In this document: piece after piece, positions 60,253 to 63,060 of the stretch
Layout of the letters: every line of letters begins with the position of its first letter
Numbering within the stretch: position 1 is the stretch's first letter
Origin: an uncultured bacterium
GTDB taxonomy: Bacteria > Eisenbacteria > RBG-16-71-46
Direction of reading: 5' to 3'
DNA length: 64,000 bases
Assembly: GCA_964434945.1 (NCBI GenBank)
Contig: CAYSWZ010000017.1
Coordinates: forward strand, 4,305 to 68,304
Notes under the pieces: generated by a model
Database searches by the model: none
The model's input: only the letters and a program-made list of their open reading frames with translations
What the model was told of the DNA's origin: nothing
Made by a program: the position numbers and the translations under genes

Positions 60253-61236
60253 ATGAATGTGCGTGCGAACAAAGGGTTCTGGGTGGCCATTGGCGGGCTC
60301 ATCCTGGCCCTGGCCGGCTGCTCCGACCTGGGGGCGCCGCTCCAGCTGGCACCGCGGATCGAGTTGTCCGCCACATCGCTCGATTTCGGGACCGTCGCGG
60401 TGAGCGCCTCGGCCACGCGGAGCGTGGTGGTGGGGAACTCGGGCAACGCCCCTTTGAATGGAAATGCCGAGGTGGCCTGCGCCGGCTACTCGATCGACTC
60501 GGGCGGCGGGGCGTTCACGGTGCCGCCCGCGGGGCAGCACACGGTGGTGGTCCGCTATCAGCCGGGCGTCGTCGGCAGCTCGCCGTGCGAGCTGACGCTC
60601 GGAAACGGTCTCCCTTCCGTGGCGCTGTCGGGAAGCGGCGCACTGCAGGCGCCGGGGGCGGTCTGCTCCGTGTCGGTGACGTCGATCGATTTCGGCACGC
60701 TCGCGGTCGGCAGCAGCAAGCCCGGCTCGTTCAGGGCGTACAGCACCGGCACGCTGCCGGTGAGTCTCGACGTGGTCTCCGGCTGCGGCGAGTTCTCCAT
60801 CGTGGCCGGCGGCGGCCCGCACACGCTCGCCCCCGGCGATTCGCTCGTCGTCACGGTCGGGTTCGCGCCGAGCGTGGGCGGACACTTCGCGTGCACGATC
60901 GCCACCGGTCCGGGTTGCCCGGACGTGTCCGTGACCGGCGACGCGACCAGCGTGTCGTTCGCGACCCAGATCCTGCCCATTTTCAATTCGACGGGTTGCA
61001 ACAGTTGCCACGTGTTTCGGCGCACGACCGACATCGTGAACGTGACGAGCCAGCTGGGCTACGCTCCCGCGCTCCTGGTGAAACCATTCGACCCGACGAA
61101 CTCGGTGCTCTGGAACAAGGTCGCGAATACAGGGGTGTACGGCCAGCCGATGCCGTTCGGCAGCCAAAACGGCCTGCCGATTTCCCAGCGGAACCTGATC
61201 AAGACATGGATCATCGAAGGCGCACACAACAACTAG
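60253..61236 (+). CDS. Lipoprotein with two Ig-like (ASH/PapD-like) repeats and a C-terminal PSCyt1-type monoheme cytochrome c domain
   Basis: Lipobox LALAGC. Repeats begin SLDFGTVAV... and SIDFGTLAV.... The C-terminal domain ILPIFNSTGCNSCHV...YGQPMPFGS...LIKTWIIEGA carries one CxxCH. Confidence 0.7.
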   Translation: MNVRANKGFWVAIGGLILALAGCSDLGAPLQLAPRIELSATSLDFGTVAVSASATRSVVVGNSGNAPLNGNAEVACAGYSIDSGGGAFTVPPAGQHTVVVRYQPGVVGSSPCELTLGNGLPSVALSGSGALQAPGAVCSVSVTSIDFGTLAVGSSKPGSFRAYSTGTLPVSLDVVSGCGEFSIVAGGGPHTLAPGDSLVVTVGFAPSVGGHFACTIATGPGCPDVSVTGDATSVSFATQILPIFNSTGCNSCHVFRRTTDIVNVTSQLGYAPALLVKPFDPTNSVLWNKVANTGVYGQPMPFGSQNGLPISQRNLIKTWIIEGAHNN

Positions 61237-61249
61237 CCGGGGGCGGGAC

Positions 61250-62407
61250 ATGGCCGACGACGGAAGTTGGGAGCAGGGGAGACGCAGCCCGCGCACCACG
61301 CGCGTCGGGGCGGCGCTCGTGCTCGTGAGCGCGGCGCTGTCGCTGTGGCCCGCGCTCGAGGCCCGCGCGCTCCCCCGCTACTCCGCGCGCTACGAGCAGA
61401 ACTGCATGCTCTGCCATGTCAATCCCACCGGGGGTGGCATGCGTTCGGCGTACGCGACGCAGTCGCTCATCCCGAAGGAGATCGCCATGTCGCCGGCCAC
61501 GCCCGGGGCCCTGGCGCAGCTCGACACGCACCTCAACAAGAACATCACCATCGGCGCCGACTTCCGCGAGCTGTTCATCGCCTCCACCGCGAACGCGGAG
61601 CTGGCGCCGCCGCAGGGTTTCTTCCCCATGCAGGGCGATATCTACCTCGCGTTCCAGCTCGATCCCCGCTACCTCCTCTACGTGGACCGCAGCCTGTCGA
61701 GCACGTACGAGGTGTTCGGCCTCGCGAACGTGCTGCCGTGGGACGGCTACGTGAAAGCGGGCAAGTTCGTGCCGGCGTACGGCTGGAAGTTCGACGATCA
61801 CACCATGTACGTGCGGAGCGAAGAGGGCTTCATGCCGCCCGGCAACGCCGACGGCGGCGTCGAGGTGGGCCTCTCGCCGAAGTTCGGCGACCTCCAGGTC
61901 GCGCTCGTGAACGGGAACCGCGGCAGCGAACTCGACTCCGACCGGCGGCTCGCCACCGCGCTCAACATGAGCACCCGGTTCCGCGCCGGGCCGCTCGCGG
62001 CCACGGCCGGCTTCTGCGGCTATTCGCAGCCGGGCATCAACGAGGACCTGAACAGCGGGGGCCTGTTCGGCTACTTGAACGGCTGGAACGTCACCTGGCT
62101 CGGGCAGGGCGACCTCGTGAAGCGCGACCCGCACGTGACCACGGCGACGGTGGCGGTGGTCACGTCGCACGAGCTGAGCGTGCTGGTGCATCGGGGCGTC
62201 GAGCTCAAGTCCACGTACGATTTCTTCGATCCCGACCGGTCGCTCAAGACCGGATCCAAGTCTCGCTGGGGCGTCGGGTTCATGGTGATGCCGCGCCCGT
62301 TCCTCGCGGCCGAGGCGAGTTTCCGCAGTACCCATGTCCAGAACGGCCCGGCGCTGTCGGCACGCGACTTCGACGAAGGCCTGTTCCAAGTGCACCTGTT
62401 GTATTGA
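61250..62407 (+). CDS. Fused monoheme cytochrome c / outer-membrane beta-barrel protein (Cyc2-like candidate)
   Basis: Signal peptide ...LSLWPALEARA, then YSARYEQNCMLCHVNPTGGG (CxxCH). About 330 aa of strand-like sequence end in ...GLFQVHLLY. Confidence 0.6.
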   Translation: MADDGSWEQGRRSPRTTRVGAALVLVSAALSLWPALEARALPRYSARYEQNCMLCHVNPTGGGMRSAYATQSLIPKEIAMSPATPGALAQLDTHLNKNITIGADFRELFIASTANAELAPPQGFFPMQGDIYLAFQLDPRYLLYVDRSLSSTYEVFGLANVLPWDGYVKAGKFVPAYGWKFDDHTMYVRSEEGFMPPGNADGGVEVGLSPKFGDLQVALVNGNRGSELDSDRRLATALNMSTRFRAGPLAATAGFCGYSQPGINEDLNSGGLFGYLNGWNVTWLGQGDLVKRDPHVTTATVAVVTSHELSVLVHRGVELKSTYDFFDPDRSLKTGSKSRWGVGFMVMPRPFLAAEASFRSTHVQNGPALSARDFDEGLFQVHLLY

Positions 62408-62436
62408 TCCGACGGCCGCCGGAGCGAGGGGACACC

Positions 62437-63060
62437 ATGAAGCGTCACGAAAGGACTCGCGGGGTCGTTGGGGTCGCGGCACTCCTGGCCGGGCTGCTGG
62501 TCGCATCGGCGGGCGTTGCCCGTGCGACGGAGTTCATGGTCCGGCCGGGGAAGGACACGAACGTCGTGTTCACCTCGAACGCGACGGTGGAGACGTTCGA
62601 CGGCAAGACGCACACGATGACGGGAACGCTCACGCTCGAACCGGGCGCGGTGGGCGACAGCGTCACGGTGCACCTCGAAGTGGACCTCGCCAGCCTCGAC
62701 ACCGGAAAGTCGCTCCGGAACAAGCACATGCGCGAGGACCATCTCGAGACCGCGAAGTACCCGAAGGCGGTGTTCGACGGCGCCACCGTGCTGTCCCCCG
62801 CCGGGGCGAAGCTCGAAGCGGGCAAGGCCATCGCGTTCCAGCTCGAGGGCACGTTCGCGTTGCACGGCGTGACCCGGCGGCTGCGCTGCGACGCCACGGC
62901 CACGTACACGCCGCAGGGGAAGGGCGGGGCGATCGCGTTCAACGCCTCGTTCCCGGTGACGCTCGCGGACTACGCGATCAAGCGGCCGGAGTTCCTGTTC
63001 CTCAAGCTCGCCGAGACCCAGCAGGTGCGCGTCAGCGCGATCGCTTCTTCGGCGCCCTGA
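62437..63060 (+). CDS. YceI-family periplasmic (polyisoprenoid/quinone-binding) protein
   Basis: Signal peptide. NATVETFDGKTHTMTGTLTL, VDLASLDTGKSLRNKHMRE..LETAKYPKAVF, LHGVTR. Confidence 0.85.
   Translation: MKRHERTRGVVGVAALLAGLLVASAGVARATEFMVRPGKDTNVVFTSNATVETFDGKTHTMTGTLTLEPGAVGDSVTVHLEVDLASLDTGKSLRNKHMREDHLETAKYPKAVFDGATVLSPAGAKLEAGKAIAFQLEGTFALHGVTRRLRCDATATYTPQGKGGAIAFNASFPVTLADYAIKRPEFLFLKLAETQQVRVSAIASSAP

Follow-up and report, generated by a model that had tools for sequence, protein, structure and literature searches.

Cyc2 is the main genetic marker from which microbial iron oxidation is inferred in genomes and metagenomes, and the principle that it embodies, a cytochrome fused to a porin, is already known. 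In Acidithiobacillus ferrooxidans the set of the rus operon comprises Cyc2, rusticyanin and Cyc1, a c4-type dihaem cytochrome, and in Rhodobacter ferrooxidans SW2 a periplasmic dihaem c-type protein, FoxE, acts as Fe(II) oxidoreductase. By its published definition, Cyc2 is at least 365 aa long and has a signal peptide, one CXXCH haem site, a 16-strand porin and the motif AXPXFAR[Q/K][T/Y] before the haem, with PXL behind it (PMC8406198); OprP and OprO are the structural templates reported for it by Keffer et al. 2021 (PMC8406198). Crystals of YceI lipocalins have shown octaprenyl lipids or ubiquinone-8 (UQ-8) as ligands, and a Neisseria homolog purified from the periplasm binds UQ-8; the family is genetically linked to cytochrome b561, to which it is fused in alpha-proteobacteria, and in the proposed model cytochrome b561 re-reduces the lipocalin-bound quinone (PMC9113575). 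Here, we compare with these systems a three-gene locus at positions 60253-63060 of a 64,000-nucleotide stretch of DNA from an uncultured bacterium of the Eisenbacteria (contig CAYSWZ010000017.1), referred to as a whole as the window. Its genes encode a lipoprotein cytochrome (P1), a Cyc2-like cytochrome-porin (P2) and a YceI-family lipocalin (P3), and are best explained as one operon coding for an outer-membrane redox module. We read this module as one for electron uptake, with a probability of roughly 0.55.

A cytochrome-porin related to Cyc2

The three genes all start with ATG and lie on the + strand, separated by 13 nt (P1-P2) and 29 nt (P2-P3), exactly as an initial annotation of the window had placed them, and codon-position GC marks each as a genuine gene in a window of about 70% G+C. 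Export signals on all three, claimed by the same annotation, can be read in the sequence, as a lipobox in P1 and as signal peptides in P2 and P3. The features are as follows.

61250-62407, + strand: P2, 385 aa, fused monohaem cytochrome-porin of the Cyc2 superfamily, 'NPxGGG' sister clade
61250-61369, + strand: P2 signal peptide, residues 1-40, read from the sequence, with a presumed cleavage between ALEARA and LP
61367-61444, + strand: P2 haem segment ALPRYSARYEQNCMLCHVNPTGGGMR, with the haem site CMLCH at nt 61403-61417 (C52-H56)
61544-62404, + strand: P2 beta-barrel, residues 99-385, 16 predicted strands, with the outer-membrane-protein-type C-terminus FQVHLLY
62393-62395, + strand: P2 His382, three residues before the C-terminus
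60253-61236, + strand: P1, 327 aa, with a lipobox signal peptide, two immunoglobulin (Ig) domains and a C-terminal monohaem cytochrome c domain
60304-60321, + strand: P1 lipobox LALAGC, residues 18-23, lipidated Cys23
60352-60948, + strand: tandem Ig-like domains of P1, residues about 34-130 and 138-232, optional in orthologs
60949-61233, + strand: P1 cytochrome c domain of PSCyt1/FoxE type, with the end WIIEGAHNN
60997-61011, + strand: P1 haem site CNSCH, C249-H253
61150-61155, + strand: invariant Met300-Pro301 of P1, likely axial Met
62437-63060, + strand: P3, 207 aa, periplasmic YceI-family lipocalin with an ordinary signal peptide, cleaved between GVARA and TE
60132-60252, + strand: intergenic region before the operon, 121 nt, the sole sizeable gap and a possible promoter region

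P2 has a single haem motif, CMLCH (residues 52-56), which lies about 12 residues past the likely cleavage site of the signal peptide, just where the initial annotation had seen it. The beta-barrel suggested there, on a chain ending in FQVHLLY, is likewise predicted by AlphaFold2 (AF2), whose model places 16 beta-strands within residues 99-384 (predicted local distance difference test, pLDDT, 73; predicted template-modelling score, pTM, 0.72). In Foldseek, the best PDB TM-scores of this model are with OprP and OprO (2O4V and 4RJW; 0.60-0.62, root-mean-square deviation 4.5 Å). An outer-membrane barrel combined with cytochromes is also found in MtrCAB, PioAB/MtoAB and Pcc, in the case of Mtr together with a lipoprotein cytochrome. 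However, the barrels of those systems have 20-26 strands and sheath separate multihaem (8-12 haem) proteins, whereas the operon described here has 16 strands, one covalently fused haem segment and a monohaem partner. A multihaem complex of the Mtr/Pcc type was rejected on these grounds, given one haem per protein and 16 strands.

As a single query, P2 found no match in Pfam, NCBIfam or the PDB sequences, and its homology became visible only with profiles. For comparison, the defining Cyc2 motif was back-translated to a degenerate DNA pattern and reference genomes were scanned with it, which gave 120 canonical loci, including those of Mariprofundus and other Zetaproteobacteria, Acidithiobacillus, Nitrospira defluvii, Chlorobiaceae, Gemmatimonadota and Eisenbacteria; the 89 full-length canonical open reading frames (ORFs) drawn from them were built into a proxy Cyc2 hidden Markov model (HMM). 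Against this HMM, P2 scores 22 bits (E=0.004 for a nominal 10^6 sequences), and deeper members of its clade score up to 60 bits. Profile-profile comparison with hhalign gave 97.7% for the close P2 family against canonical Cyc2 (E=2e-12, 331 columns) and 99.5% for a clade profile of 142 sequences (E=1e-22, 344 columns). The relationship reaches into the barrel, since with signal peptide and haem region removed the comparison still gave 97.6% (E=3e-12, 265 columns), and the single Cyc2 sequences of Mariprofundus and N. defluvii matched the P2 clade at 95-96%, with the alignment inside the barrel. As a negative control, the haem-less porin at 44020-45258 of the same window reached 0.5% at profile level.

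P2 thus shares with the Cyc2 proteins (A. ferrooxidans Cyc2, Mariprofundus Cyc2PV-1, Leptospirillum Cyt572) the architecture of a fused monohaem cytochrome-porin: a signal peptide, one CxxCH no further than about 12 residues into the mature protein, a pre-haem motif of related form (A-x-P-x-[aromatic]-[small]-x-[basic]-[Y/T]-x3-C) and a 16-strand OprP/OprO-like barrel in a protein of at least 365 aa. The signatures of the two groups are nevertheless mutually exclusive (142 versus 89 sequences). Strict PxFAR[QK][TY] occurs in 0/142 members of the P2 clade, 123 of which have a relaxed P-x-aromatic-small version, and the PxL that follows the haem site in 82/89 canonical Cyc2 proteins is found in 0/142; 140 of the 142 have CH-x-x-P-x-G-G-G. 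A His three residues from the C-terminus, His382 in P2, is kept in 94% of the clade and is missing from canonical Cyc2 C-termini. The pre-haem motif forms a gradient: the window has PRYSARY, and deeper members reach PRFAART, one substitution short of PxFAR[QK]T. On this profile evidence P2 is a homolog of Cyc2 with the same architecture, which makes 'Cyc2-like', the term chosen in the initial annotation, the right wording; as both signature motifs fail, P2 belongs to a separate sister clade outside Cyc2 as presently defined, and the published Cyc2 motif filter would discard that clade.

Conservation within the clade is centred on the haem. In 30 P2 relatives, down to 51% identity, A-[LV]-P-R-Y-[SA]-A-R-Y-x-Q-x-C-x-L-C-H-V-N-P-x-G-G-G-M-R is essentially invariant; P42, C52, C55, H56, P59, G61, G63 and R65 are each kept in at least 94% of 142 clade members, and the haem motif with its flanks is the most conserved portion of the protein. 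These data bear directly on the proposal that P2 is an ordinary diffusion porin with an incidental or structural CxxCH and unrelated neighbours, to which its resemblance to general and phosphate porins lends some colour. The haem motif, whose conservation the initial annotation had left to be checked, is invariant in 142/142 relatives; profiles tie P2 to canonical Cyc2, as opposed to the haem-less porin of the same window, which is unrelated at profile level; and the neighbouring genes are kept through changes of gene order. We therefore regard an ordinary porin as exceedingly improbable, and effectively excluded by the conservation data.

The features that set P2 apart from Cyc2 are also those that could point to another reductant. 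Because it sits at the periplasmic rim, His382 is a candidate distal haem ligand, and together with CH-xxPxGGG it is unlike Cyc2 and may mean a different haem ligation and potential, so that the same module might act on Mn(II), Cu(I), reduced humic or phenolic compounds or sulfur species. Cyc2 homologs have reportedly been proposed for Mn oxidation in Ca. Manganitrophus. However, positive evidence for any particular alternative is lacking and both cytochromes have Fe(II)-oxidising relatives, so that we consider a substrate from this list very unlikely.

Relatives of P2 number in the hundreds, every one annotated 'hypothetical'. When clusters at 50% identity were searched exhaustively with a profile, 1,784 of their representatives matched at E<=1e-3, so that the clade comprises at least that many clusters, and 841 matched at E<=1e-10. 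The hosts are Eisenbacteria, Bacteroidota and metagenome-assembled genomes (MAGs) labelled 'Deltaproteobacteria', and many members come from soil-type metagenomes. On a 58-kb contig of one Deltaproteobacteria MAG (L209), two porin-cytochrome paralogs (P0430 and P0464) lie about ten genes apart by their locus tags (HYY06_07480 and HYY06_07430), so some genomes hold multiple copies. Separately, a Candidatus Eisenbacteria MAG (L012) also encodes a canonical-motif Cyc2, IPAFARKYQTSCQTCH, and the canonical and P2 types may coexist in Eisenbacteria. Cyc2-like matches have been reported in Eisenbacteria MAGs (PMC9769843) and may be of the canonical type, given the canonical-motif gene of this genome.

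Conserved partners of the cytochrome-porin

The arrangement of the operon is kept in dozens of relatives, where the initial annotation had only proposed to look for it. Among 82 loci encoding P2 relatives of 47-74% identity, 65 extend far enough upstream to be judged, and 59 of these have a P1-type cytochrome gene immediately before the porin gene and on its strand; 54 extend far enough downstream, and in 51 of them YceI comes immediately after P2. An HMM search raises these counts to 69 and 60 loci, respectively. Median gaps are 1 nt between P1 and P2 (often with an overlap of 1-4 nt) and about 18 nt between P2 and YceI. No fourth gene recurs across these loci, the only further synteny being that of housekeeping genes among close relatives (ThiL, M16 peptidase, MGMT). 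By comparison, the 120 canonical Cyc2 loci (862 kb) have a P1-type cytochrome nearby in 0/120 cases and YceI in 1/120. In that one locus (L069, 2108-2764), which belongs to an uncultured proteobacterium, an ORF of the YceI family (E=2e-7 with the YceI HMM) follows the canonical cyc2 at a distance of about 0.7 kb, and an association of YceI with Cyc2 may arise sporadically outside the P2 clade.

Rearranged loci retain the same partners. A deeper branch (L207) has the porin first, then YceI, a CHRD protein and a lipoprotein (GGCSDGGEP...) with Ig and P1-type cytochrome domains, and in two further loci (L206, L210) the P1-type cytochrome lies downstream of the porin. The partnership thus outlasts gene rearrangement, which argues for functional coupling. 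The L207 CHRD protein, a 365 aa product of positions 2420-3517 between YceI and the P1-like lipoprotein, has two CHRD repeats and a probable C-terminal domain of the type IX secretion system (T9SS) type; it may be a further secreted partner in that lineage.

Deeper in the clade, we inspected the neighbourhoods of seven PRFAART-type loci from 'Deltaproteobacteria', Bacteroidota and other MAGs. In five of them (L203/L204, L209, L211, L212, L213) a cupredoxin, the porin-cytochrome and a dihaem cytochrome c follow one another with overlapping stop and start codons, a layout that parallels the Cyc2/rusticyanin/Cyc1 set of A. ferrooxidans. L212 also encodes an upstream protein of 1,162 aa with a weak PSCyt1 match, the porin of L210 has a PSCyt1 protein as neighbour, and at L208 (P0263) no redox neighbour of the porin was found. 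For P0259 and P0176 the contigs retrieved did not reach far enough to inform on neighbours. The two arrangements meet in a member of the close family (L001, Eisenbacteria type, 3.6-Mb contig, 5825-7367), where a 136 aa cupredoxin lipoprotein (PF00127 at 4e-7) is encoded two genes upstream of the trio and P1 is short and Ig-less; this layout links the YceI-type operon to the cupredoxin partner of the deeper clade. Also upstream of the L001 trio is a 319 aa protein with a weak FlgD_ig match and a faint match to the T9SS C-terminal domain (Por_Secre_tail). The conserved partners in the clade are all redox carriers, be it a FoxE/PSCyt1-like cytochrome, YceI, or a cupredoxin with a dihaem cytochrome c. 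As the porin stands clade-wide beside small periplasmic electron carriers, a role in electron transfer is supported independently of its homology to Cyc2.

The assignment of P3 to YceI, made in the initial annotation, was confirmed by Pfam (PF04264, 2.5e-22, 80.3 bits against a cut-off of 23.7). Consistent with a soluble periplasmic protein, a lipobox-like motif was seen in just 1/44 P3 orthologs. Two described systems resemble the operon in the genetic link that they make between a YceI lipocalin and a cytochrome, membrane-bound or secreted: BcnA-LcoA, which combines a YceI lipocalin with cytochrome b561 in peroxidation defence (PMC9113575), and Cellvibrio Cbp2D, which joins a YceI/UQ-8 (X158) domain and two cytochrome c domains in one protein and is implicated in extracellular electron supply (PMC8981238). 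The operon differs from both in its outer-membrane cytochrome-porin and lipoprotein cytochrome c and in having no b561, carbohydrate-binding module or FN3 domain; a b561-like gene was found neither in nor beside the operon, and none recurs across 25 long loci. In the literature searched, no paper pairs YceI with Cyc2 or with extracellular electron transfer, and no description of the gene trio was found, in agreement with the initial annotation, which had not recognised it as a described system.

The link between YceI and cytochromes also suggests a different role, that of an envelope antioxidant and outer-membrane counterpart of BcnA-LcoA, in which YceI-quinol would quench lipid peroxyl radicals or oxidants and the haems of P1 and P2 would recycle the quinone. 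YceI with b561 is a documented peroxidation defence, to the point of fusion in alpha-proteobacteria (PMC9113575), and YceI is here almost obligatorily linked to a membrane cytochrome. On the other hand, the cytochromes of the operon are c-type and unrelated to b561, and radical quenching needs no pore-forming barrel. Further, the deeper clade keeps the porin-cytochrome with cupredoxin and dihaem cytochrome c and without YceI, and these YceI-less loci imply that the porin serves, at its core, to pass electrons to soluble carriers and does so independently of YceI. We therefore hold an antioxidant role to be improbable.

P1 has 179 homologs, for which the only NCBI name is 'choice-of-anchor D domain-containing protein [Candidatus Eisenbacteria]'. 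The lipobox LALAGC reported in the initial annotation is present at residues 18-23, and the two Ig-like repeats reported with it appear as two beta-sandwiches, at residues 36-130 and 138-232 and followed by a helical C-terminal domain, in the AF2 model (pLDDT 90.5); they match NCBIfam choice-of-anchor D (NF012200, 1e-18, two stretches) and the Pfam HYDIN/ASH Ig family (8e-11). Not all orthologs have them, as those of L001, L153 and L154, at 137-142 aa, consist of a lipoprotein signal and the cytochrome domain only. From the lipidated Cys onwards (60319-60339, residues 23-29) runs C-S-D-(L)-G-x-P, of which C23, S24, D25 and G27 are invariant in 34 orthologs; it could be a lipoprotein sorting signal, a surface-export signal or a docking element. 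The rearranged L207 homolog has a similar CSDGGEP.

The single CxxCH that the initial annotation gave to P1 is there in the window, as CNSCH, and yet is not strictly kept, since the orthologs have CX2CH (38), CX3CH (20; CALGCH, CDQACH) or CX4CH (2; CLN[VP]GCH) with the other key residues invariant. Throughout 46 aligned P1-type cytochrome domains the two Cys, the His and the downstream Met-Pro are invariant, so that the domain, as judged from its sequence, fits a c-type haem with His/Met ligation of Class I type. Among these close orthologs (L124, L126, L133, L137, L139, L141, L153, L154, L158-L160, L171, L172, L180 and L190), the spacing variants form a natural series within one orthologous domain.

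Regarding the relatives of this domain, the initial annotation had named PSCyt1. Searched alone, the cytochrome domain of the window's P1 has no match in Pfam even at E<=10, PSCyt1 (PF07635, gathering score 22 bits) included, and the 46 P1-type domains match Cytochrome_CBB3 (14), Cytochrom_C (5), PSCyt1 (3, counted at E<=0.01, best 5e-5) and PccH (1). At profile level the proposal does hold as remote homology, since a 123 aa protein with a confident Pfam PSCyt1 match, whose gene immediately follows that of a clade porin in a Bacteroidota MAG (L210), aligns with the P1 profile at 98.2% (E=4e-14). P1 and PSCyt1 have in common the N-terminal (D)IxPIhxxxCxxCH and the overall layout; unlike planctomycete PSCyt1 proteins, in which PSD1 and PSCyt2 are typical companions, P1 is not combined with either domain. 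Among PDB sequences, the P1-domain profile finds FoxE (5MAB) first, at E=2.5e-6 and with both FoxE haem domains aligned, and hhalign of the P1 domain with FoxE domain 2 gave 96.5% (E=8e-10); this link is one of sequence profiles, as Foldseek with the P1 model is dominated by the Ig domains. FoxE haem domains and the P1 domain share C..CH ... (G/F)DP..S ... (R)MP.G ... WI..GA. They differ in context, P1 being a lipoprotein with one haem domain and two Ig domains and FoxE a soluble protein with two tandem haem domains from a foxEYZ operon, and no foxY/foxZ-like neighbours were seen at the operon. By these profiles the P1 domain is related to the haem domains of both FoxE and PSCyt1, and FoxE is the more informative relative.

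The build of P1 also raises the question of direction. Electrons might instead leave the cell, through an outward or bidirectional conduit from the periplasm to extracellular Fe(III), humic quinones or secreted oxidative enzymes, in which P1 would be surface-exposed like MtrC and YceI-quinol would be the donor. Its choice-of-anchor Ig domains belong to a family typical of surface proteins, the invariant CSDLGxP after the lipidated Cys could be a sorting signal, and the hosts are probably organotrophs. Moreover, Cbp2D, with its YceI/UQ-8 domain and two cytochrome c domains, has been proposed to feed electrons to extracellular lytic polysaccharide monooxygenases (LPMOs) (PMC8981238). Yet many P1 orthologs are devoid of any Ig domain, no LPMO or reductase gene recurs nearby, and, as P2 and P1 hold a single haem each, the pair does not span the membrane unless P1 docks at the pore; in addition, the closest characterised relatives, Cyc2 and FoxE, are both Fe(II) oxidases. 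On balance, we find outward flow unlikely.

Proposed electron uptake

For the electron-uptake module that we favour, we infer substrate and direction of electron flow, and the individual steps, taking as a guide the model that Keffer et al. published for Cyc2 (PMC8406198). The haem segment of P2 would plug the periplasmic mouth of the barrel, and a small dissolved reductant, most plausibly Fe2+, would enter the pore and be oxidised there. The electron would pass to the haem of P1, which its lipid anchor and Ig spacers would hold at the inner leaflet of the outer membrane; P1 would then reduce an acceptor in the periplasm. For this acceptor the operon itself offers a candidate, an isoprenoid quinone bound by YceI that could take reducing equivalents on to the inner membrane; deeper members of the clade would instead use cupredoxin and dihaem cytochrome c as periplasmic partners. 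Fe(II) as the substrate, which rests on the same analogy, is a tentative assignment that we place somewhat below even odds. A fuller version, in which the Cyc2-like haem-porin and P1 pass electrons to YceI-carried quinone and soluble YceI shuttles this quinone to the inner-membrane pool, appears quite unlikely to us; if true, the YceI shuttle would replace the soluble cytochrome/cupredoxin relay of the sister operons, and abundant soil heterotrophs (Eisenbacteria and relatives) would gain an unrecognised use of Fe(II) or other extracellular reductants.

Several observations weigh against electron uptake in general, or against Fe(II) in particular. P2 has ALPRYSARY, and deeper members ALPRFAART, in place of the AxPxFAR[QK][TY] of Cyc2, and the invariant xxPxGGG(M)R in place of its post-haem PxL; on the Cyc2 HMM, its 22 bits compare with 132-410 for canonical members. 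Given the missing motifs and the far lower score, to transfer the function of an Fe(II) oxidase to P2 is a long extrapolation. The N-terminal haem segment of P2 is modelled by AF2 with low confidence, and the surface-protein character of the P1 Ig domains has been mentioned above. Quinone chemistry at the outer membrane is, to our knowledge, not established. The operon is set among housekeeping genes, terminal oxidase and carbon-fixation genes are absent nearby, and the hosts look like soil heterotrophs. Lastly, Keffer et al. allow for other functions of Cyc2 in organisms without known iron oxidation (PMC8406198).

The initial annotation had put forward an electron conduit, Fe(II) oxidation and YceI as a quinone carrier, and these we, too, infer. 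What has changed is that the functional reading is strengthened by the partner genes in related clades and by the literature on YceI and cytochromes.

Genomic setting and significance

The window is chromosomal, as it carries dnaA, dnaN, gyrB, gyrA, groEL and pst/phoU genes. Its GyrB falls into one cluster, at 90% identity or more, with a protein of a Candidatus Eisenbacteria MAG. Of these, gyrA (25294-27918), gyrB (28623-30569), dnaN (30926-32113) and dnaA (32477-34024) are clustered on the - strand (25294-34024), so that the window probably adjoins the chromosomal replication origin; GroEL is encoded at 9394-11040. The control porin at 44020-45258 (+ strand) is a 412 aa ORF without Pfam match that looks like a haem-less outer-membrane beta-barrel with the end ...LRLTLFWKF. 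It lies upstream of a pst permease (47343-48221) and PhoU (49158-49841), and in view of these neighbouring phosphate-transport genes it may be a phosphate-type porin. Scans of the operon region with promoter and terminator consensus patterns returned nothing; for this lineage, the lack of a sigma-70 consensus carries no information.

With fused cytochrome-porins known as a principle, what is new here is the P2 clade, with its signature, its size and its exclusion by the Cyc2 definition, as well as the partnership with a lipoprotein cytochrome of FoxE/PSCyt1 type and YceI, and the CX2-4CH variability of P1. No earlier description of the P2 clade was found in the Cyc2 phylogeny literature searched, and none of the P1 partnership, the YceI partnership or the CX2-4CH variability in the literature searched.

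For a field that relies on Cyc2 to recognise iron oxidation, this means that a large homologous clade is excluded by published filters that require PxFAR[QK][TY]. Should its members oxidise Fe(II) or some other extracellular reductant, estimates of how this capacity is distributed in soils would change. The xxPxGGG motif, His382 and the CX2-4CH variation of P1 offer direct targets for mutagenesis, and, if the electron-uptake reading is true, PSCyt1 and YceI, both widespread domains, would gain a testable function.

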